A DNA stretch of 64,000 nucleotides, from sequence record NC_027356.1. One strand, written 5' to 3'. The notes beneath the pieces are model-generated. The model worked only from the letters and a program-made list of their open reading frames with translations. It made no database searches and was not told where the DNA came from. Source of the stretch: Escherichia phage DT57C. This document shows positions 1-10,734 of the stretch, one piece after another; position 1 is the stretch's first letter, and each line of letters starts with the position of its first letter. Made by a program: the position numbers and the translations under genes.

Positions 1-70
1 GCTCACCGCCGGAGGCGAAAATACTTAGTCTGCTAACCGCCACCCCCCGTTACTATTACTCTGCTAACTA

Positions 71-98
71 TTTCACCTTGCAACCATTTTAATTGCAA
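71..98. other. 10-bp perfect inverted repeat (caccttgcaa / ttgcaaggtg) immediately 3' of dmp; possible RNA hairpin
   Basis: Perfect complementarity read directly; no clear U-tract so terminator role uncertain. Confidence 0.3.
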
Positions 99-123
99 GG
101 TGAAACAAATTCAACTGTAATTA

Positions 124-858
124 TTACGCTACTTTTAATTTCTCAATATATTGTTGTGGGCTGCAACTATATTCTGCGCGCTCCTCCTCGGTCATACCTT
201 CCCAACATAATTGCAAGCGGTCGGCTAGGAACTGATAATCATTATCATCTTCAAGAGATTCATCAATAAAGGTTTCGCCGATCAATGTGACGCCTATTGA
301 TAGAATATCGTTAACGGCTTGCGCGTCCAGCGTTTTAAATCCATATGCCGCCGCCGCTGATAATACGCCTTTATGATCATCAATCATCGTGAAATCAGCG
401 TTCGGATATAGCTGTTTGAATAGCTCAAAATAATGGCTTTTATATATAGCGTCTTTACTGTGGTATATTTCGCTAACCTTATCAGCCGTAAAATATTTGT
501 GAAGTGTATCGCGGGAAAATACGCGGATATTGCTATTCCCACGCCCTCGCAGACCTTGTTTGCGCAAATAATAATAATCCGACTTACTCATCAGGCGAGC
601 GGTGCAAATAATGTTTAACGTGTTGGCGTCATTCATGCATTGGCGCATATAGGTAACGAGCGGCAAAAGCGTATCCTGCATTATTAACTCATGTTTGCAC
701 GCTTCATTTTTATACTTATTTAAATCTAAATCGCCTTCAATATCAAAGCAAGGCGCTACACGGTGGGCGGAGTTAATGATCGTGCCGTCCAGATCCCAAA
801 TCATTACGCGGGAAATATGCGGGTAATTGCGGGAAATATTCTTTTTATCTTGATTCAT
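124..858 (-). CDS. dmp: 5'-deoxyribonucleotidase (HAD-superfamily phosphatase), T5 dmp-like
   Basis: 244-aa ORF; N-terminal HAD motif WDLDGTI; context upstream of A1-like gene as in T5 pre-early region. Confidence 0.75.
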   Translation of the reverse strand: MNQDKKNISRNYPHISRVMIWDLDGTIINSAHRVAPCFDIEGDLDLNKYKNEACKHELIMQDTLLPLVTYMRQCMNDANTLNIICTARLMSKSDYYYLRKQGLRGRGNSNIRVFSRDTLHKYFTADKVSEIYHSKDAIYKSHYFELFKQLYPNADFTMIDDHKGVLSAAAAYGFKTLDAQAVNDILSIGVTLIGETFIDESLEDDNDYQFLADRLQLCWEGMTEEERAEYSCSPQQYIEKLKVA

Positions 859-898
859 TTTGTTACGTTCTCCATTAAAGGGATTAAGTTAATTTAAT

Positions 899-921
899 CC
901 AGCCCATACAGTGGGCTGGAG
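899..921 (-). other. Perfect 8-bp stem hairpin (ccagccca tacag tgggctgg) between 133-aa ORF and dmp
   Basis: Inverted repeat read directly; could be attenuator or processing site; lacks strong U-tract. Confidence 0.35.
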
Positions 922-932
922 TATTTCAGTCA

Positions 933-1334
933 TTAAAATACCAGACCATAAGCCAAAGCATCAGCGATAACAGTAATATCCTCGCCAGATACACCGGAAC
1001 GAATACCGGCGCATGTAAATACCTTCGCGCTCATTAACTGATCATCAAGACAAGCGGGGCAAGGCGCGACAACTGCGAAAGCTAAACCAGCTTTTGCGGC
1101 GTCAATAATAGTCGTTTCTTGTTTCATCGTATCAATGTAAACGCCTTTCGCCTTGATGCGGCTAGATAGCTTGCCCGTGGTGTAGGCGAAAGTAGTGATC
1201 TGTAGCGCCTCATTAAATTCGATTAAGTCATCAACAACGTGCCCCGCCTCGACGTGATAGCGCTCACCGGTAGAATAAACTAGGACGATTGCAGACTGCG
1301 CGCGATCGAATGGGATACGGTTGTAAGTAGTCAT
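933..1334 (-). CDS. Pre-early hypothetical protein (possibly A2-like)
   Basis: 133-aa ORF directly downstream of A1-like gene on same strand; assignment to A2 by position/size only. Confidence 0.45.
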   Translation of the reverse strand: MTTYNRIPFDRAQSAIVLVYSTGERYHVEAGHVVDDLIEFNEALQITTFAYTTGKLSSRIKAKGVYIDTMKQETTIIDAAKAGLAFAVVAPCPACLDDQLMSAKVFTCAGIRSGVSGEDITVIADALAYGLVF

Positions 1335-1403
1335 GCGTATAACTCCAATTAATTTAATAAACTTTTATGGCGGCGGTATATTTCGCCCGCCCGCCTGATT
1401 TAT

Positions 1404-3068
1404 TTACGCGAAAAATTTGCCGTTTTTAAAGTCGATTAACGTGCGCTGCCCGTTTGCATATGTAATTACATGCGTTTGCGTCCAGCTTGATGCGCCGACG
1501 TTGTAGCCCATATCGAGGCTGCCCGATACGCCAGCAGTATATACGCCGCCGTAAATGCTGGCGGTATGGGTGTGCCCCGTGTTTAATTTGCCCAACTTTT
1601 TAAATTGCTTCGGATTGCCGCGGCTCCCGTTGATGCCGTTGTGACCGTGTACGCCGCACTCAATGCCTGCAATCTTGAATGATTGATCAGTCGTTAGGAA
1701 TATGGCGTTAAACTCACAGCCTGCAACCTTGCGCAGCGCATAATCCAGCACGTTGAAAGTATCGTCATTTTCTGCAATAGCTCCATAGATCGCGGCGTTG
1801 AGGCGGTGATATAGCTCTGCGTTTGCTGGATCGTCTTTAATGTTAGCGTTGCGATCATCCAGCCAACGGGATAACGCCAGATCGTGGTTTGACTCAACAA
1901 TGATTGTTTGCGAGAAATCGCGCTCCATTGATTCCAATACACGCCCCGTGTCGATAAGATCATCTAAAACCTTATCACGTCCGGCGGCGTACTGTTTTGC
2001 TAGGAATACGCCAGATGCGCGATTGTGGTGGTTGCGTGATGTAAAGTCATGCACATCATGCACGAACTGATATTTAGGTTTAAGAATATCAAGCAAACTA
2101 TTTTCGCCCGCCCATGACGCTTCAGCACACGCCTTATCTAATTTTTCAGCGTGCACGTCGCCATACTGTAAACCTAAAACATGCCCCGATGTTTCATAAC
2201 ATCCGGCGGGAGTGGCGCAAATATTCAAATCATAAAAAACGCCGGTTTCATCCATCGTCTCAAGCTGGCGAACAAAAAATGCCCCGTCCTCGTCAAACTC
2301 GACAATCAGCGCGCCAAAGTTATGTAACGCTTCGGCCTTTTGCCCTGCTTTCTGCTGAATGTAGTTTTTTAGCGTTGCCGCTCCCGTTGAGTACATACGG
2401 CGCACTACTTCACCTTTGAGCGCTGGAACGCTTTCTGCGGTGATTTTAGCTGCTCCAATTGCCAAACCTTCAAGATCAAGCGCTGTTGCAGTCTCAGCGA
2501 ATCCAGAAAGCGGGTAGTCTGCCGTTGGCAAAACATTAATCTCAGCCATGAAAGCAAAGCGGCGACTATTTAAAAACACGTTTTTATTACAGATATATTT
2601 ATCAAAAGCGGAATCATATTTGATCCCGTCCGCACCTTCTCCATTCTGGAATCCTTTTTTGTTATAAATGAACTTGCTAACCAGCAAATCAGCGCCGATA
2701 AATTGGGCGTAATGTTCAAGTGAGGCTAAAAAGTTTTTATGCGGGAACGTGTTGTTCTGGATTGATGTTATAATGAAGCGTTTGCCCTGCTTTACTTCCC
2801 ACTGTTCAACCGTGCTAGAAATAATTCCCGCCGCCTCTGGGCGCTCGTCGTTTTTAACGGCTTTTGATGCTTTCGCCTCTTTTGGTTTCGCTGGTTTGTT
2901 TGCTTCCAGCCAATCACAAATTGCGGTCGAATGTTTTGCCGTATCGTACACCGCTTTTGATATATCGTCGCAGACTTCCAATCTAGTAGCGCGCAGACGT
3001 TTACCGTAAAAATTAAAATCAGCGGCCAGCTTCAGGATAACGGTTTGTTTTTCTGCGGAAATAACCAT
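1404..3068 (-). CDS. A1: A1-like pre-early protein, calcineurin-like metallophosphoesterase
   Basis: 554-aa ORF; phosphoesterase-type motifs (GVHGHNG, NTGHTHTAS); size and position match T5 A1. Confidence 0.7.
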   Translation of the reverse strand: MVISAEKQTVILKLAADFNFYGKRLRATRLEVCDDISKAVYDTAKHSTAICDWLEANKPAKPKEAKASKAVKNDERPEAAGIISSTVEQWEVKQGKRFIITSIQNNTFPHKNFLASLEHYAQFIGADLLVSKFIYNKKGFQNGEGADGIKYDSAFDKYICNKNVFLNSRRFAFMAEINVLPTADYPLSGFAETATALDLEGLAIGAAKITAESVPALKGEVVRRMYSTGAATLKNYIQQKAGQKAEALHNFGALIVEFDEDGAFFVRQLETMDETGVFYDLNICATPAGCYETSGHVLGLQYGDVHAEKLDKACAEASWAGENSLLDILKPKYQFVHDVHDFTSRNHHNRASGVFLAKQYAAGRDKVLDDLIDTGRVLESMERDFSQTIIVESNHDLALSRWLDDRNANIKDDPANAELYHRLNAAIYGAIAENDDTFNVLDYALRKVAGCEFNAIFLTTDQSFKIAGIECGVHGHNGINGSRGNPKQFKKLGKLNTGHTHTASIYGGVYTAGVSGSLDMGYNVGASSWTQTHVITYANGQRTLIDFKNGKFFA

Positions 3069-3165
3069 AATATTAAAACTCCATTAAAGGGATTAAGAAC
3101 GTTTGTTATTGGCAAATATTGCCAAATATAACGCTGCTTATTAACAGCGTTATAATTTGCAATAC

Positions 3166-3411
3166 TTAACTGATCGGCATCAGGCTAGAACTAACACCAC
3201 AAACAACGGCGGTAATAAAACAAAATAAGCCTAAACGCTTTGCTAACTTTGATTTGCGTTTAAAGTAATATGAATCCAGATCATTCTGGAAATAAGCGAA
3301 CAATAATGAGGCCGCTACAATAAATAAACCTAGAATTAACGATTCAGTGGGATAAAAGATCATTTTAATAATTCCAGTTAAAGGGAAATTATAGTGGGGA
3401 ATATTCCCCAC
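3166..3411 (-). CDS. Small membrane protein (2 predicted TM helices)
   Basis: 81-aa ORF, hydrophobic segments; RBS GGAG 8 nt upstream of ATG. Confidence 0.5.
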   Translation of the reverse strand: MGNIPHYNFPLTGIIKMIFYPTESLILGLFIVAASLLFAYFQNDLDSYYFKRKSKLAKRLGLFCFITAVVCGVSSSLMPIS

Positions 3412-3420
3412 TAATTAAAT

Positions 3421-3837
3421 TTATTCACCTGCGGATTGTTTTACTTCATCTGCTACGCCTAGTAATTGCGCTACGGCGTCCAGCGTTTCTAATTTTGCGC
3501 TTTCCAGACTTGCCAGATCGTCGGCGTCTTTGATAATGCCGGAATCAATGGCATGTTTAGCAATAACGCGCACATAATGCGCCTTGCGGATTGAACTACC
3601 GCCGCCAACTTTGCGCGGTTTATCGCTTTTCTGATACGCTTTTGCGCTGGTCAATTTTGAGCGAACAGACACAGGGGAAGTAGCGCCCACTGTTTTGGCG
3701 ATCTCTTTCAGGCCGTCGCTGTTTGCGAACTCTAAACCGTTTTCATTGATTAATTGCTGATACATAGAAACGGCTTTTTGGGTATTTTCTTCATTCCATG
3801 CAAATTTTGCGGATTTTTCGGTTTTAACGTTAGTCAT
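3421..3837 (-). CDS. Hypothetical pre-early protein
   Basis: 138-aa ORF; conserved initiation region tggagtttataccATG shared with ORF 3938-4189. Confidence 0.55.
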   Translation of the reverse strand: MTNVKTEKSAKFAWNEENTQKAVSMYQQLINENGLEFANSDGLKEIAKTVGATSPVSVRSKLTSAKAYQKSDKPRKVGGGSSIRKAHYVRVIAKHAIDSGIIKDADDLASLESAKLETLDAVAQLLGVADEVKQSAGE

Positions 3838-3937
3838 GGTATAAACTCCAATTAATTTAATTTAAGGGATAAGATTAACATAATGTTAATCGTTATATTT
3901 CCCCAATAGTTCGGGGAAATATAAAGTTAACACTAAA

Positions 3938-4189
3938 CTATGCTACAGCTTCCAATTTTTCGTTACGTTGAACAACTTTTACAACGTCGCCAGATTTAAC
4001 GCGAACACTAAAAACGGTTTTTCCGTTGTTGCTACGTTCCGTTTCTGCATATACTGCATCAATTACATCGAACGGCATGAGCGCCGCGCCTTTGATGCGT
4101 TCGGCCTTTCCGGTTGCCTCGTCTGTTTTAGTAACGAAAGGGATGAAAACGGATTGACCAATTTTTGGCGCGGTGATAGCGTTTTTCAT
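3938..4189 (-). CDS. Hypothetical pre-early protein
   Basis: 83-aa ORF; same conserved RBS/start context as neighbour. Confidence 0.5.
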   Translation of the reverse strand: MKNAITAPKIGQSVFIPFVTKTDEATGKAERIKGAALMPFDVIDAVYAETERSNNGKTVFSVRVKSGDVVKVVQRNEKLEAVA

Positions 4190-4422
4190 GGTATAAACTC
4201 CAGTTATTTGATGGATTGTTCCGCATTACCTGCTAAAAAATAATAACAGGTAATAAGAAAAAATCCGCTCACCGTTAAAATCAATTTAAGGAACTCCACA
4301 CAGGCCGCTATATCCCGTTAGGGGGCGGGGCACATTATGGCAAGTACCGGCCGTCAAATTTTACCAAGTTATCGCTCTTGTTGAATCGGGTACATTTTAA
4401 AGCCTATCGGCTAGGGCGTCAA

Positions 4423-4593
4423 ATTATTTTTCGTTTTCTTTTAAATTAGAATTCTCCCAACTGAATTGCATCTCGCAAAATATTTTCCCATCTTTATGAT
4501 GGTAAGCGATCTCGCTCCCGTGGTTAGCACAGAAAGCGATCACTGCCTCAGCTTGTTCTACCGTGATATTGTTGGCCGTTTCTTTGATTTTCA
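4423..4593 (-). CDS. Small hypothetical protein (~56 aa), not in ORF track (below size cut-off)
   Basis: Read by eye: AAGGAGACGACGAT-ATG; translation MKIKETANNITVEQAEAVIAFCANHGSEIAYHHKDGKIFCEMQFSWENSNLKENEK; coordinates approximate. Confidence 0.3.
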
Positions 4594-5220
4594 TATCGTC
4601 GTCTCCTTATAAGGTTAATAAGTTTGCCGCCGATGGGCTTTAAAATGCACCTGATTTTTAAAGAGCGCGGCGGTAAACTTTCCGCCGTGTAGTTCGTCAT
4701 TGCCGCCCTACGAGATAAATAATAGGGAATACCCAAAAAAGGTGCAACCTTAATTTTGTAAAGAAATGTAAAGAAAGCAAATACCCGCACCGCGTCCGGC
4801 GATCGCCCAAGTTTAAAGGAAACAGGCGCGCGGATACCATAAAACCGAGCTGATTGGCAAGTAATTTTTTCATTTTTATTTGCCTTGCCCTACTTGACAA
4901 AACTTAAAAAGCTCGTGGTGACGATAAACGGGCTATCCCTTTATGATGGGATACCTGAAAAATTTACCGCGTTGTAGGACGTTTTAGGCCGCTTATCTTC
5001 GATTTAACAAATATTTAACAAAAGCAAAATTGAAAAATAGTTTGAGAAGGTATTGACTTTTTAAAATCAAGACTAAACGAGTTATTTTAAAAAATTAATT
5101 AATTGACTTTTATTTGTTGTTGTGTAGTAGAAAGATAGCAGACTAATAATTGCTAGAATGATAATCATGCTGGTGATTGTAACAGACTGAACTATTAGCA
5201 GACTACTGATCCCGGAAAAT

Positions 5221-5260
5221 CTCATTAGCCAACTAACTATCTCATTAGCCAACTAACTAT
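5221..5260. repeat. Direct repeat 2 x 20 bp (ctcattagccaactaactat)
   Basis: Identical tandem copies read directly. Confidence 0.8.
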
Positions 5261-5265
5261 TTCAT

Positions 5266-5450
5266 AAGTTATAATAACTATAAAAATAATCACCGTTAAA
5301 ATAATCACTATAAAAATAATCACCATTAAAATAATAACTATAGAAATAATCACCATTATAATAATCACCATTAAAATAATCACTATAAAAATAATCACCA
5401 TTAAAATAATCACTATAAAAATAATCACCATTATTATAATCACTATAAGA
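5266..5450. repeat. AT-rich tandem repeat block (units ~12/24 bp, aataatcac[ct]a[t]taaaa)
   Basis: ~8 reiterations visible; explains spurious I/V-rich ORF 5237-5443. Confidence 0.8.
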
Positions 5451-5486
5451 AACTATCGGCTTAAGTGAGAACCACTATCATTTAAG

Positions 5487-5568
5487 TTATCCACAACGTT
5501 ATCCACAGCACAAAATGATTTGACACGATAGGCGGCGATATAAAGATTTATCCACAGACTTATCCACA
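5487..5568 (+). promoter_or_regulatory. Cluster of four DnaA boxes (TTATCCACA) in direct orientation
   Basis: Exact 9-mers at 5487, 5499, 5548, 5560; followed by LexA-like half-site ctgtatatttatccag (5579-5594). Confidence 0.6.
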
Positions 5569-5872
5569 GGTTATCCTACTGTATATTTATCCAGGGTAAA
5601 AAGATAGTGTTTACAACTGCAATCAATTTTGAGCGGCCTAAAACGCTTTCTAACGAGCTGATCGCTGTAGGGTAATATTAAAGTAAAGCCTTTACCCGTC
5701 GGCCTAGAGGCTTCGCCGTGTTTTGCTCTTTACTGCACCGCTGCGCGGTTAGCATAAAACTAGGTGTTAGGCAAGAAAAATAAAAAGTAAAGTAAACGTT
5801 GCCCCTAGAAAGAAAATAATTTTACCGGTAACATCGAAAGCGGGTAATAATTAACCTAATGTAAAGTTTTGT

Positions 5873-5902
5873 AAGGCCCGCCATAATCAGCGGCCTTTTT
5901 TG
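5873..5902 (+). terminator. Rho-independent terminator-like hairpin with T6 tract
   Basis: aaggcccgcc...gcggcc stem followed by tttttt. Confidence 0.45.
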
Positions 5903-5965
5903 TTATACTGCCCTTACACCGTTTAAGGACGGTTAAAAATTTCCCGAAAAATTTGGAGGCTTAAA

Positions 5966-6145
5966 ATGGTTATTTTTCGATCTATTCTGGCGGGTATCTT
6001 GGGCGCTATTTTAACTCTATTTGCTACCGCTTACGGTATTCAAGATTCTTATTGCGGTTTAGTAAATACTAAACCTATGGTTATTATTGGCGCGGGTATC
6101 GCTGTTTTTTCTTATTTGCTGGGCTGCATGAATAAAGGAGAATAA
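5966..6145 (+). CDS. Small membrane protein (~59 aa), first gene of small plus-strand operon
   Basis: GGAGG RBS then ATG; hydrophobic translation MVIFRSILAGILGAILTLFATAYG...; not in ORF track (size). Confidence 0.35.
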   Translation: MVIFRSILAGILGAILTLFATAYGIQDSYCGLVNTKPMVIIGAGIAVFSYLLGCMNKGE

Positions 6146-6147
6146 AA

Positions 6148-6360
6148 ATGATCCGCAACGTTTCTCTTGCTCGTTCCAAAGGTTTTAAGCTGGTGGATGT
6201 AAACACGTTCGAGCGTCCTGGTTGTAAAATCGAATATATAGCGCGGAATAAAAACGCTTTCCGCGTTACAGAAAAGAGATTCGATAAACGCGGCAACGTG
6301 ATAGCTGAAACGGTTAAATATTTTGCCACCTTTTACGCGGCCTTTCGTGGGGTATTATGA
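6148..6360 (+). CDS. Hypothetical protein
   Basis: 70-aa ORF; AGGAG RBS; translationally coupled to neighbours. Confidence 0.45.
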   Translation: MIRNVSLARSKGFKLVDVNTFERPGCKIEYIARNKNAFRVTEKRFDKRGNVIAETVKYFATFYAAFRGVL

Positions 6361-6483
6361 AGAGCGTTGTTATTGTTATCCTTGCAATGGTTGGCGGTTT
6401 TACCACCACCTTGTTTAGAAATGATCCTCTTTTGCTAGGGATCTTTATGCTTTTATCTGGTTATCTGATCGGGAGGTTATAAA
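6358..6483 (+). CDS. Small membrane protein (~41 aa)
   Basis: ATG overlaps upstream stop (ATGA); hydrophobic; by-eye call. Confidence 0.25.
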
Positions 6484-6828
6484 ATGGTGATTTATGAAGG
6501 TGATCGCCTTGTTGCTGATTGCCGTCCGGCATTGTTAGCAAACTACTTAAACCAGCTTTCGCCAGTATATAAAGGCGTTATAAATATTTATGAAGGCGGG
6601 GCGCATTATAAGATTAATGCGGTCGTTGCCCGTGAACTAGCGTTTCAATTTTTAACCTTTTCATCTTGCAATATTCAGGTCATGGGTGAGGCGTTAATTG
6701 CAGAAAATGAAGATGATTTTATTAATATCTTTCGCAAGATATGCACCGAGCGCCTGATAATGAAAGGGGCATATATTCAATCCACTGCGGATAGTATTGA
6801 AACGGCTTTTCGAAAGGTGGCACAATGA
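6484..6828 (+). CDS. Hypothetical protein
   Basis: 114-aa ORF; GGAGG RBS 6 nt upstream. Confidence 0.5.
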   Translation: MVIYEGDRLVADCRPALLANYLNQLSPVYKGVINIYEGGAHYKINAVVARELAFQFLTFSSCNIQVMGEALIAENEDDFINIFRKICTERLIMKGAYIQSTADSIETAFRKVAQ

Positions 6829-6952
6829 AGCTATATATTTTCGCGGGTAATGTTGAGGCTGCAAATGATTCCGCTGGTGGCGATAGCGTTCGCCATTATT
6901 GGCAAAATTATATTTACTAGGCGTAATGATCACGGGGCACAACTATCAGGGA

Positions 6953-6979
6953 GTGCCCCTGATTCTCAAATGAGAATGA
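6953..6979 (+). terminator. Hairpin (ggggcac...gtgcccc) at end of small operon
   Basis: 7-bp GC stem read directly; weak U-tract. Confidence 0.3.
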
Positions 6980-7182
6980 TTCTCATTTGACCGCGCCCGC
7001 GATGGTTAGCACACTAATGATTAGGGTGTTACGTGTCGCCTTGTGTGATCGTTAGCGGGCTAACTAATTTTCAAGCCTCCTCCAGATTTGCCCTTGTTTT
7101 AGTATCCCCATCAAAATAAAACGCGTTAGAAAGCGATTCAGGGCGTTTTAGGCCTATATTAGAATTATCCACTGCGTAGGAA

Positions 7183-7202
7183 TACTGTATATTTATACAG
7201 TA
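7183..7202. promoter_or_regulatory. LexA (SOS) box-like palindrome TACTGTATATTTATACAGTA
   Basis: CTGT-N8-ACAG with AT-rich spacer, matches E. coli LexA consensus at nearly all positions. Confidence 0.5.
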
Positions 7203-7211
7203 GAATAACCT

Positions 7212-7292
7212 GGGGATAAGTCGGTGGATAACGCTTCAAAATGGCTAGAATTTTGTCAAGGCAAATCGTGCTGTTGATAAGTCTGTGGATAA
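7212..7292 (-). promoter_or_regulatory. DnaA-box cluster in inverse orientation (TGTGGATAA and variants)
   Basis: Perfect box at 7284-7292, 1-mismatch box at 7224-7232, partial ttatc-core boxes nearby. Confidence 0.5.
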
Positions 7293-7309
7293 CTTAAATA
7301 ACAGTGTTT

Positions 7310-7590
7310 CTCACTTCCGTTTTTAAATGCGAATCATTATCATTTGCATTCCACTTCTTAAATGAGAATCATTTCACTTCTTGAATAGTTCTCATTCCCT
7401 TTCTTAAATGAGAATCATTTCACTTCTTGAATAGTTCTCATTTCACTTCTTGAATAGTTCTCATTCCACTTCTTAAATGAGAATCATTCCACTTCTTAAA
7501 TGAGAATCATTCCACCTCTTAAATGAGAATGATTATCATTCGCATTCCACTTCTTAAATGCGAATGATAATCATTCTCATTCGCATTCCG
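7310..7590. repeat. Tandem array of ~22-bp repeats (cacttctt[a/g]aat[g]agaatcatt), ~10 units, flanked by palindromes
   Basis: Repeats read directly; iteron-like organisation next to DnaA boxes. Confidence 0.8.
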
Positions 7591-7594
7591 GCGA

Positions 7595-7612
7595 GCAGGG
7601 CAATTGCCCTGC
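7595..7612. repeat. Perfect 18-bp palindrome GCAGGGCAATTGCCCTGC
   Basis: Self-complementary sequence read directly. Confidence 0.8.
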
Positions 7613-7617
7613 GCTTA

Positions 7618-8361
7618 TGTGCAAATCCGACAATTGCTCCAAGGGTTACGCGAGGGCATGTATGTGCAAATCCGACCCATTTTTTGGTAGTGTGCAAATC
7701 CGACCCCAAAAATTTATAAATTCGTGAGAGTGACAAATCTGTCTCCCAAAAACTCCAGCAATCACGAACTGCGTTCGAATCCTGTGGGGTATGTGCAAAT
7801 CCGACACGGTTTTTCTAGGATTAAGATGTGCGAATCCGATGAAATTTTTGTGACTTCGATGAGAGGGTGTGTGATTGTATAGGTTTGAGGAGAAGATGAG
7901 AGAGCGAGAAAAATTTTGGGGCTAGAAGTGTATGGGCGCAGGATTGGTGCGGAGCACCTGATTTGCGGGGGTTTTGGGGGATAGTGGAGATAATTTGGGG
8001 AAATTTGAGATAGGTGCAGAAAAAGTAAAATTTTATTAGCTAAAGGGGGCAATATAGCTTGACAATTGAAAATTCTTGTGGCTCTAAAAACTCAGGCAAT
8101 CATGGGCCTTCGGCCCGAAATAATGCTGCTATTTTCAGGAGATTATATGTTCCTAAAAACTTAGGCGTTTGTGCAAATCCGACCATAAATTTCTAGAAAC
8201 ACAATGTGCAAATCCGACAGTAATTCCTGGAAATGTGTTTTCAAAAAATGTCTCCTAGAAATAACCGCCCTCCCTATAACCGCCCTCCCTATAACCGGCC
8301 TAGGTATGTAACGTTGGAGGGAAACTGCCCTAGAATATGTGCAAATCCGATTAATATTTTT
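7618..8361 (+). repeat. Dispersed array of 8 copies of 13-mer TGTGCAAATCCGA(C/T), most followed by N4-6 and a T-run; interleaved CCTAGAA motifs
   Basis: Copies at ~7618, 7663, 7692, 7792, 7827 (variant), 8169, 8206, 8347; a ninth inside CDS at ~10394. Confidence 0.75.
8261..8300. repeat. Direct repeat ataaccgccctccct x2 (+ partial third)
   Basis: Read directly. Confidence 0.7.
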
Positions 8362-8725
8362 GTGTGATCCCTAGAATTTGTGCTTATCAATTTCCTAGAA
8401 ACTTAGGAGTCTGCTAGAAAGTGTTGAGCCATCCTAGCAGATGAGCGGCAACCGGTGTATCATCTTGAACACAGATATTGCCTTTAAATTTTTATCAGTT
8501 ATTTAAAAGTAAATAGTCCCCCATTTCATGTGAGATTCCTCGTGGGGCGCGTGAGTATTACGGAAGACTTAGTAATTAGATCTATACTCGTGCTGTCGCA
8601 ACGTATAGACGTAATACTAAGTGTAATAATCATCGCCCCTAGAGTTCAAAACAAGAGTTGTTTTTAATCTATGAGATTATTATAACATGTTTGGGTATGA
8701 GAATGCAAGAACTTTTTGTTAACGT

Positions 8726-9082
8726 TTATACTTCCTCCTCGAGATTGGTATTAGGATCGTAAATTTTCTTGGCTCCTGTATTTAATAGGAATCGCTCTGC
8801 AAGTAGTGGGTGAATATCAAAGAACTCTGTGCATCCTTCGAATCCCTTTAAATTACAGCGGTATTTCTTAAAGTAGATATGAGCAGCGGCTTCTAGATCT
8901 CTAGGATTATGGGTTTCATAAATCCCATACACGTATAAATCGTCAAAACCACGATAAACTATATTATCTAAGTTTAGTGTTTGAATCCTATTATGTGGAT
9001 TCACACTGATACCGATCTTTGTTCTTTTAGGGATCTTCGTCAGATCCCTATTTGCAAGAATATATGCTTTATATAGTGACAT
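8726..9082 (-). CDS. Hypothetical protein; possible GIY-YIG/T5orf172-like motif (YKAYIL...KIGIS)
   Basis: 118-aa ORF; weak motif resemblance only. Confidence 0.45.
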   Translation of the reverse strand: MSLYKAYILANRDLTKIPKRTKIGISVNPHNRIQTLNLDNIVYRGFDDLYVYGIYETHNPRDLEAAAHIYFKKYRCNLKGFEGCTEFFDIHPLLAERFLLNTGAKKIYDPNTNLEEEV

Positions 9083-9809
9083 TCTTTCTAGCCTTTAGAT
9101 AGATTCCTTTAGATGCTAGATAGATATATGTAGCAAGGAATGAAGATGTAGATCCTGTTTCTTCAAGAGTAATAGATCCTTTTGCATAACGCTTAGTTCT
9201 AGGAGCCTGGTTAAGCACAAGTGCAGTGAGACTACCTAATCCTAGCGCATCCATTAAACGTTTGAAGGAGTCCTTTTCATCGTGGATAGCATATAGAATG
9301 TAATCTTCCGCTGTAGTTAGTTCTATATCGCGATGATGTGCCACTGCAATCCGTGCTACTACAGCTCCAATCGTTCTATAAATATCTTCAAACGTAATGC
9401 TAGTTTCAAAAGCTAATGCTGGAAGATGATCGAACTTACATTTCTTAGGCGGAATAAGAAGTTGTTCAGGATAAGCTTCTAGTGCCTGACGAACGTTTGC
9501 TTCTGGGTATGTTGGCAAAGGTTCATCTATAATAACATGTAAGAAATTAGCTCTGTGTCCTTTAGCAGTTGGATCTAAAGACTTCAATACTTTGTTCATA
9601 TCTACGTATGAATACGCTAGATCTGCTTGTGGGGCATTAATATCAAACTTAATCTTCTTACCCTCCCATTTAGCAGGGAACATCTCACAAACAAACATTA
9701 CTGCATGTTTAACCTCTGGCTCCAGCTCTGATAGACATTTGTGATCTGCTGTTACTGCTAGAGCGAGAATATTCTTAAATTTATTAGCTTCTTCAATCAT
9801 ATATCCCAT
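9069..9809 (-). CDS. Hypothetical protein
   Basis: 246-aa ORF, co-oriented, overlapping stop/start with neighbours. Confidence 0.55.
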   Translation of the reverse strand: MGYMIEEANKFKNILALAVTADHKCLSELEPEVKHAVMFVCEMFPAKWEGKKIKFDINAPQADLAYSYVDMNKVLKSLDPTAKGHRANFLHVIIDEPLPTYPEANVRQALEAYPEQLLIPPKKCKFDHLPALAFETSITFEDIYRTIGAVVARIAVAHHRDIELTTAEDYILYAIHDEKDSFKRLMDALGLGSLTALVLNQAPRTKRYAKGSITLEETGSTSSFLATYIYLASKGIYLKARKNVTI

Positions 9810-10138
9810 GCCTGCTGACTATTATCACTAACTTGTGTCTTTTTCTCTCTTCGTGGTTTAAAAGTTCCTGTAGTATTACTTTTACTAGGTTCTAATTTAT
9901 ACCACAGCATTCCTAGCTGGTTAACCATATGAGCAACATTTCTAGGGGTCAATGGCGGTAGGGATTCACAGTTTGATATCTCCCTTAATATATTAAATAG
10001 TTCTGCCTCTTTAGCTTTATTGTTTACTACCACCACGTACTCTAATGTTTCTACCTCAGAATCCTCATCCTTATAGTAGAGGCTAAGAGTAATTAAATTC
10101 TCCCCAGCAGGGGCTATTTTTGTTTTACCAAATATCAT
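9797..10138 (-). CDS. Hypothetical protein
   Basis: 113-aa ORF in operon context. Confidence 0.5.
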   Translation of the reverse strand: MIFGKTKIAPAGENLITLSLYYKDEDSEVETLEYVVVVNNKAKEAELFNILREISNCESLPPLTPRNVAHMVNQLGMLWYKLEPSKSNTTGTFKPRREKKTQVSDNSQQAWDI

Positions 10139-10734
10139 TAACTACCTCTCTTATCTTCGTTAAGAGCAGCTCCTAGTGCTTCCATAATTGCATCTTCTAT
10201 ACTTCCATGCTTACTAGGATTGCTTAAGTGAATAGTATATGAGTTCCTAGAAACTCCAGAGTCCACAGGTGCTGCGCTTTTCCTATCAGACTCAAAAGCT
10301 TCTTGGGTATGTTTCAACTGTACAGAAGGCCCATAGTCTTCCCCAACTCGATAGGACTGATTAGACGACAGCGTACCACCGCAGGGAACATTGTGCAAAT
10401 CCGATGGATTATTTAATAGTGCAATACCACCTCTTGGCCACGAGTCACTAACATGAGTACTAGGACGGTTAACCTCAGTCTTCACGAGTTTATAACCAGC
10501 ATCTATTAATGCATTAATAAGGTTATCAGCTGGAATGCGAGCCTTGCCAAAAATCTCACGAGCGTTGTTGAGCCTACCTTCAAAACCTTTACATGCTCTA
10601 ATATTAGTGTGTGCAAAGGTTAGCTTCATAGATTTGAATTGTACAGTAGCAGTTAAATCTTTAAAGCTATAATCCCACGTATTCAGTTCATGATCTGGTA
10701 CTACTTGAATAGATTGCTGTGCATATAAAGTCAT
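10138..10734 (-). CDS. Hypothetical protein
   Basis: 198-aa ORF; contains one copy of the 13-mer motif. Confidence 0.55.
   Translation of the reverse strand: MTLYAQQSIQVVPDHELNTWDYSFKDLTATVQFKSMKLTFAHTNIRACKGFEGRLNNAREIFGKARIPADNLINALIDAGYKLVKTEVNRPSTHVSDSWPRGGIALLNNPSDLHNVPCGGTLSSNQSYRVGEDYGPSVQLKHTQEAFESDRKSAAPVDSGVSRNSYTIHLSNPSKHGSIEDAIMEALGAALNEDKRGS

Follow-up and report, generated by a model that had tools for sequence, protein, structure and literature searches.

A repeated 13-mer at the inner end of the terminal repeat of a T5-like phage is the local version of T5 direct repeat D and a candidate site for a phage-encoded DNA-binding protein

Repeated sites for the small terminase subunit lie beside the packaging cut in phages lambda (cosB, R1–R3) and SPP1 (pacL/pacR), and asymmetric sites are read by single Myb/SANT-type domains in RAP1 at telomeric repeats and Reb1 at Ter sites. 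That the last DNA packaged is the first to be ejected is established for lambda and T7 and extrapolated to T5. In phage T5, the stop of DNA entry after 8% of the genome and its restart have been a question since the 1960s, and papers from 2020 to 2026 call the mechanism unknown; those of 2026 describe the stop signal by sequence features alone and regard the second transfer step as poorly understood. In the T5 record AY587007, nine sites at 9672–10409 carry the labels "direct repeat D copy 1" to "copy 9"; they lie within "Repeat Region 3" of Davison (bioRxiv 10.1101/866236), who counts nine DRD copies and assigns no role to the repeats. The same record places palindrome J at 9650–9666, overlapping "major single-stranded nick 1, 7.9%", while a second T5 record, AY692264, labels 9140–10144, which covers the first copies, "injection stop signal".

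The window (the whole stretch analyzed, 64,000 nucleotides of Escherichia phage DT57C, NC_027356.1) contains an array that a first-pass annotation had described as eight copies of a 13-mer. This array is confirmed as a real feature. A pattern scan of the window finds TGTGCAAATCCGA exactly seven times (7618, 7663, 7691, 7792, 8170, 8205, and 8338) and once, at 7827, with a single mismatch (TGTGCGAATCCGA); all eight copies are on the plus strand and together they span 7618–8350. When up to two mismatches are tolerated, the window yields 10 matches, whereas 100 shuffles yield 1.45 on average and never more than 5. A genome-wide count, which the earlier annotation had proposed, shows that the motif is not evenly spread: across all 108,418 bp of the genome, copies that deviate from it at no more than one position are confined to four places (the array, the counterpart of the array in the right terminal repeat, 10392, and the pair 67378/67393), all on the plus strand. 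The features of the region are as follows, with motif copies taken from the pattern scan.

7157–7300, no strand assigned: DnaA boxes with a TGTATATTTATACA palindrome (left context)
About 7300–7590, no strand assigned: 23-bp tandem repeats, between the DnaA boxes and the array
7595–7612, no strand assigned: perfect 18-bp palindrome GCAGGGCAATTGCCCTGC, read from the sequence, at the position of T5 palindrome J
7608–7615, minus strand: match to the nick consensus R/GCGCRGG, CCTGCGCT on the plus strand, 3 nt before copy 1
7618–7630, plus strand: motif copy 1, TGTGCAAATCCGA, at the position of T5 direct repeat D copy 1
7663–7675, plus strand: motif copy 2
7691–7703, plus strand: motif copy 3
7792–7804, plus strand: motif copy 4, opening a two-copy module at 7786–7839 (repeat family D6)
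7827–7839, plus strand: motif copy 5, TGTGCGAATCCGA, one mismatch; the last within the terminal repeat by comparison of the record ends
7840–8058, plus strand: motif-free G-rich spacer with TTTGGGG-type runs, GC skew +0.6 to +0.68
8059–8085, plus strand: TTGACA (8059–8064), about 20 nt, then TGTGGCTC(T), the right end of the terminal repeat by identity of the record ends
8086–8102, plus strand: 17-mer AAAAACTCAGGCAATCA, starting at the first base past the repeat end; second copy at 7748–7764 (repeat family D10)
8170–8182, plus strand: motif copy 6, the first beyond the terminal repeat, opening a second two-copy module at 8164–8217
8193–8419, plus strand: six CTAGAA, at 8193, 8255, 8330, 8371, 8395, and 8414 (motif scan)
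8205–8217, plus strand: motif copy 7
8261–8305, plus strand: three tandem 15-nt units ATAACCGCCCTCCCT, two exact and the third 73% identical (repeat family D7)
8338–8350, plus strand: motif copy 8
10392–10404, plus strand: outlying exact copy, antisense in CDS 10138–10734

The stretch had been called gene-free, and the deposited record indeed has no annotated CDS from 6828 to 8726, where open reading frames are short (at most 96 aa); the array region is flanked by rightward pre-early genes and leftward early genes. The spacing between copies is irregular, as had been stated, and ranges from 28 to 343 nt. The two halves of the array, 7748–7839 and 8086–8217, resemble one duplicated module in which the 17-mer AAAAACTC(C/A)(A/G)GCAATCA precedes two 13-mers spaced 35 nt from each other, and their 54-nt two-copy units are 74% identical. 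The earlier statement that the copies are usually followed after 4–6 nt by TTTTT holds for four of the eight and fails for the other four. Among 201 distinct copies from relatives, a T-rich bias is seen at 6–10 nt past the motif (63–74% T; TTTT in 50%, TTTTT in 33%), and the base immediately 3′ of the motif is C or T in every copy. The 3′ half, TCCGAY, is as invariant in enterobacterial phages as the DnaA-like half, and the conserved unit is 13–14 nt long.

The elements reported around the array are also present: the perfect palindrome at its left edge, the direct repeat placed at 8261–8300 (two exact 15-nt units plus the degenerate third), and the interleaved CCTAGAA-like motifs, which take the form of a CTAGAA cluster at 8193–8414 on the plus strand. 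Six CTAGAA lie on that strand within 222 bp just past the terminal repeat, against 80 genome-wide, and the window has 20 CCTAGAA where 9.2 would be expected. The cluster looks like a second oriented motif; CTAG-containing motifs accompany the 13-mers also in phages KEY, AhSzw-1, and D124. A hairpin, GGGCCTTCGGCCC, at 8104–8116, 19 nt past the repeat end, is invariant in 14 T5-like phages and has a similar counterpart in KEY and in Logan contig L184; it carries no T-run on either strand.

Region 7000–8700 is 99.9% identical, at equal coordinates, to Escherichia phage DT571/2 (KM979355.1, genus Tequintavirus); hundreds of T5-like phages of Escherichia and Salmonella align with it at 84–90% identity. 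Applied to T5, the 13-mer pattern recovers exactly the nine annotated direct repeat D sites, seven of them exact and two with A6G. The unit, TGTGCAAATCCGA(C), 13–15 nt, is the same in both phages, on the same strand and at similar spacing, and in both the array starts right after palindrome J and the 7.9% nick and runs across the right end of the left terminal repeat into unique DNA. The order of neighbors is shared as well (DnaA-box inverted repeats, tandem direct repeats, palindromes, array), the left context at 7157–7590 and the array together being the counterpart of T5 Repeat Region 3. By sequence comparison, the eight 13-mers are the local version of T5 direct repeat D, already catalogued and annotated in T5 since 2005. 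The two differ in copy number, T5 having nine copies against eight here, where the counterpart of T5 copy 4 is absent, and in the length of the terminal repeat, 8085 bp here versus 10139–10219 bp in T5. A full-text literature search for the motif sequence found no paper. New here are a comparison across the phage family, the two-part layout on either side of the repeat end, the adjoining nick site, the conserved internal copies, and a testable candidate reader.

A Fur-box-like 7-1-7 motif, TGATAATNATTATCA, occurs with at most two mismatches five times in the 64-kb window (233–247, 6971–6985, 7328–7342, 7524–7538, and 7565–7579), all within the terminal repeat, whereas shuffles give 0.98 on average and 4 at most. 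The site at 233 is a perfect match, the 23-bp tandem repeats at 7300–7590 are built upon the motif, and Aeromonas phage AhSzw-1 has GAATGCGAATTATTATCATTCGCATTC at the equivalent place. Such sites could titrate the host iron regulator; a search of the Fur-box literature for T5 found nothing relevant. In Vibrio phage IW18 (positions 483–498 of the examined piece), TGGCACGATTCTTGCT is a perfect sigma-54 promoter consensus adjoining the terminal-repeat DnaA boxes. The pattern TGGCAC-N5-TTGC is not enriched in the window, where the IW18 site has no counterpart.

In an alignment of 14 distinct T5-like phages that differ overall by about 20%, the motif columns are close to 100% conserved, and the non-coding block 7068–8260 is more conserved than the flanking genes. 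Neither of the outcomes that the first-pass annotation had named as refuting its reading, even frequency across the genome and free variation among close relatives, is seen. The motif is unchanged in My1, IME260, KEY, and L184 although the spacers cannot be aligned. Forms and layouts in the distant lineages are these.

Pectobacterium phage My1: (A/T)GTGCAAATCCGA; 6 copies, a gap of about 600 bp, then at least 3
Klebsiella phage IME260: TGTGCAAATCCGA; 5 copies, gap, 6
Erwinia phage KEY: GTGCRAATCCGA; 5 copies, gap, 3
Logan contig L184: GTGCAAATCCGA; 4 copies, gap, 3
Vibrio phage IW18: GTGCAAATTCTA / ..TCCGAC; 5 copies, boundary, 2
Vibrio phages D124 and D254: TGTGCGAAACCTA, TGTGCGAATTCAA; partly in 13-bp tandem
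Aeromonas phages AhSzw-1 and TS3: AAGTAGAAATTCGAC, AGTACTTATCCGAC; copies, a G-rich gap, more copies

All copies share one orientation in every lineage that has the array, and spacing is irregular, down to 13 bp. No recognizable array was found in Proteus phage 1, where 15–18-bp tandem repeats run directly into the G-rich spacer. Given this strict orientation, the near-invariance, and a related motif kept where spacers are unalignable, the most likely reading of the 13-mers is a set of independent, identically oriented sites to which one sequence-specific DNA-binding protein of the phage would bind. An array for a single protein was also the earlier proposal; orientation, near-invariance, and retention in distant genera fit it, with the binding protein itself still putative.

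Other explanations of a repeated short unit fare less well. CRISPR arrays have repeats of 23–50 nt, regular spacing, and unique spacers of similar length, whereas the unit here is 13 nt and the spacings are irregular, so the earlier exclusion of a CRISPR array stands. An Rfam search at a permissive E-value gave only sub-threshold chance matches, all outside the 13-mers; the sole CRISPR-type match among them lay in the 23-bp tandem repeats rather than in the array. A set of promoters had likewise been dismissed, and no promoter-like site falls within 7600–8360: a search for sigma-70 promoters and intrinsic terminators gave four promoter-like sites versus 6.0 expected, and no terminator-like site. 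A likeness to the tRNA T-arm (TTCGAATCC at 7773–7783; AATCCGA in the motif) was rejected by eye, since the copies have no preceding complementary stem, and resemblances to CRP, IHF, and sigma-54 sites were rejected in the same way.

The similarity to DnaA boxes is closer. The 13-mers share with the boxes of oriC a TGTGNAWAA-like 5′ half, clustering, and the orientation of the adjacent true boxes, and they might be weak DnaA boxes, or other conserved host-protein sites, that extend the cluster on the left. The reverse complement of the first nine nucleotides of the motif, ATTTGCACA, matches the DnaA consensus TTWTNCACA at eight of nine positions, one D124 copy (TGTGCAAAA) matches at all nine, and canonical boxes lie 330–400 bp leftward in the same orientation. 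However, the mismatch falls at position 1, which is fixed, the conserved unit is longer (13–14 nt), and no TGTG core, which DnaA requires, is present in the Aeromonas form AAGTAGAAATTCGAC, in a phage whose true boxes stay TTATCCACA. The same holds throughout: nearby DnaA boxes stay TTATCCACA in every lineage, while the 13-mer drifts from lineage to lineage. A drifting motif beside a non-drifting host-protein site argues for a phage-encoded, co-evolving reader rather than a conserved host protein, and we regard the host-protein explanation as very improbable. The T5 origins were mapped near the genome center, according to work cited by Davison.

The array is placed precisely with respect to the terminal repeat. 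The ends of the record are identical (1–8085 = 100334–108418), so that five copies belong to the terminal repeat and three to unique DNA, with the boundary inside the 343-bp gap between them. The boundary lies within the array wherever both repeat copies have been sequenced, namely in DT571/2, T5, two other Tequintavirus contigs, My1, IME260, and IW18. The copies are split around it 5/3 in DT571/2, 6/at least 3 in My1, and 5/2 in IW18, where one copy begins 2 nt beyond the boundary; the T5 repeat end, 10139, falls between copies 6 and 7. In all cases, the inner copies are about 100–500 bp from the physical right end. For IME260 (NC_041899.1), the boundary was taken after shifting the annotated end of the record by about 20 nt: the last 20 nt of the record, gcttagagggttggggggtg, mismatch the left-repeat sequence after ...CCTGTGGCTC (10255–10277), which places the annotated repeat end, 10277, some 20 nt beyond the real point of divergence.

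The boundary itself has a recognizable context, consisting of G-runs, TTGACA, about 20 nt, and CTGTGGCTC|TAAAAAC. T5, My1, and IME260 have it at the repeat end, as does IW18 less strictly, and it recurs in KEY, D124, D254, and L184, whose repeat ends are unsequenced; the G-rich spacer is likewise placed in IME260, IW18, AhSzw-1, KEY, and D254. The G-run/TTGACA element is a candidate terminase cut signal. The left repeat boundary (…ACATGGAGGTGT|GCTCACC) looks unlike the right-end context.

An array that straddles the repeat end in every lineage with both repeat copies sequenced invites comparison with lambda cosB and the SPP1 pac sites, which are also short repeated sites within a few hundred base pairs of a cut, on both sides of it in SPP1. 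The 13-mers could accordingly be sites for the small terminase subunit that position the cut or nick at the right terminus and start packaging, and they might recruit the nickase. If the last DNA packaged is the first ejected in T5, the capsid would take up the right end first. The T5 small terminase gene is treated as sciB in deposited records, and sciB is one of two genes to which nicking has been attributed (PMC3517423); the major nick is 3 nt from copy 1. Several observations run against this assignment. The N-terminal helix-turn-helix stretch of the subunit, a putative DNA-contacting surface, differs strongly among T5-like phages, IME260, and My1 (SEIAFRDIMNRSEV, EEPKFREIMRKPEV, and KEVDCRLMLQKPEI), which share an identical 13-mer; the separate conserved G-run/TTGACA element at the cut may be what the terminase actually recognizes; and the left repeat boundary has no motif copies nearby. 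In D124 and D254, all copies are apparently on one side of the predicted boundary, and one paper has the T5 left end packaged first, opposite to the direction assumed above. Unlike cosB and pac, the array shows no fixed spacing phase and has extra conserved copies far from the termini, with a putative reading helix of the subunit that is not conserved along with the motif and binding that is putative. Taken together, we consider a terminase function unlikely, though it is the main rival of the reading preferred below.

In Aeromonas phage AhSzw-1, a frame homologous to the small terminase gene (MG676225.1; about 900–1390 of the examined piece, minus strand) contains six in-frame TAG codons and no frameshift, and the annotation near it is fragmented. 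The TAG codons could reflect sequencing error or TAG read-through/recoding.

Two sets of copies lie far from the repeat end. Around the copy at 10392, 20 nt (10385–10404; GGAACATTGTGCAWATCCGA, GGAACATTGTGCAAATCCGA) contain a single variable position (A/T) in 16 relatives, in which the flanking gene sequence varies and carries indels. The near-copy pair AATGTGCAAATCCTACAGGTGCAAATCCGACA in the D13/sbcC gene (67376–67407, outside the window, at 62% of the genome) is embedded in some 48 nt that do not vary among four phages, among them one with only 82% identity over the region. These extra copies look like constrained sites, and they are of no help in choosing a reader. The pair is about 370 bp from the nick-consensus site at 67010.

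At the other end of the array, copy 1 adjoins the major nick. The T5 major-nick consensus is R/GCGCRGG (PMC3517423), and the match at 7608–7615 ends within 3 nt of the motif; a GCGC tract adjoins the first copy also in KEY, IME260, IW18, and AhSzw-1. A general link between motif and nick was rejected, as the other consensus nick sites, 29884 and 67010, have no adjacent copy. The PhageTerm repeat end of Salmonella phage Seafire (MK050846.2, about 9585–9600) falls at the major nick beside copy 1, and so does the annotated left-repeat end in the Paris-Orsay T5 record AY692264 (1249–1250 of the examined piece). Both annotated ends differ from the point at which the repeat copies cease being identical. 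Most likely, the nick was mistaken for the terminus in these two records, and nicks may mislead terminus callers in T5-like phages.

In T5, copy 1 (9672, 7.9% of the genome) begins shortly after the point, estimated at about 9618, where first-step transfer ends. This position raises the question of whether the array belongs to the physical stop signal, stalling entry after about 8%, either as bare DNA or bound by a protein that is packaged with the DNA or is a host envelope factor. The "injection stop signal" of AY692264 takes in the first copies, the 7.9% position agrees with the length of first-step DNA measured by shearing, and the whole non-coding block, which Davison argues to be the stop signal, is more conserved than its flanking genes. 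Yet the stop candidates of Davison and others (DnaA boxes, IRD′/IRC′, and DRE) lie to the left of the array, and the three copies past the repeat end, the 10392 copy, and the D13 copies would have no role in a stop; nor is a mechanism known by which a 13-mer stalls a DNA channel. We hold a direct part in the stop to be quite improbable. Of the roles suggested by the first-pass annotation, injection stop and packaging thus draw support from location (the AY692264 feature and the repeat end inside the array), and nothing supports a partition-like site.

Returning to a dedicated phage-encoded reader, the pre-early protein A2 is the candidate we put forward, tentatively and at somewhat short of an even chance, with the sites serving second-step transfer. 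A2 is essential for this step, and the literature calls it a DNA-binding protein with no known target. It is predicted to carry a three-helix (helix-turn-helix) domain of the Myb/SANT or GcrA type, and the array resembles the sites of such domains in being non-palindromic, oriented, and repeated. The placement of T5 copy 1 close to the first-step limit counts in its favor, as does the divergence of the terminase helix-turn-helix stretch among phages with an identical motif. The eight compared lineages whose motif has a TGTGC core retain a putative recognition helix, S-V/I-R-S-K-L, except for L184, which has G for S; in two Aeromonas phages, whose motif differs in its 5′ half, the helix reads VRQKL. 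A rule by which A2 residue 60 covaries with the 5′ half of the motif is undermined by L184, where VRGKL goes with an unchanged motif, so this residue is no simple determinant. The covariation argument is weak and comes down to one independent change, in Aeromonas. Attempts to widen the sample of phages with both A2 and an array, using a four-sequence alignment and single-protein scans, returned close relatives only, and an alignment of seven A2 proteins was too divergent to serve as a search query.

Other points also count against A2. Proteus phage 1 has an A2 homolog but no recognizable array, and an array flanking the terminase cut site is predicted by the terminase explanation and not by this one. 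If DNA entry truly stops to the left of the array, the sites would be in the channel or tail, where cytoplasmic A2 could not reach them. What probability the named candidates leave goes to another phage protein, or to no function. Protein binding, A2 as the protein, and a use of that binding in second-step transfer are all three inferred here.

The array marks the inner end of the terminal repeat, from 3 nt past the major nick to beyond the boundary with unique DNA. Under the A2 hypothesis, A2 synthesized from the DNA transferred first would load onto the sites where the DNA enters, by itself or together with A1, and its loading would help to release the remaining genome or pull it into the cell. 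In its fullest form, which we consider possible but on the doubtful side, the array would be a cis-acting restart site for T5 DNA entry, where A2 loads at the boundary between the first and second steps and drives or releases transfer, with site and reader co-evolving across the Demerecviridae and a possible coupling to processing of the terminal repeat. The sharply defined, mutable 13-nt unit offers a concrete target for testing whether A2 or the small terminase subunit binds, and a reverse-genetics system for T5 has become available. Whichever protein may read it, the array sits where the stop and restart of DNA entry and the formation of the roughly 10-kb terminal repeat meet.
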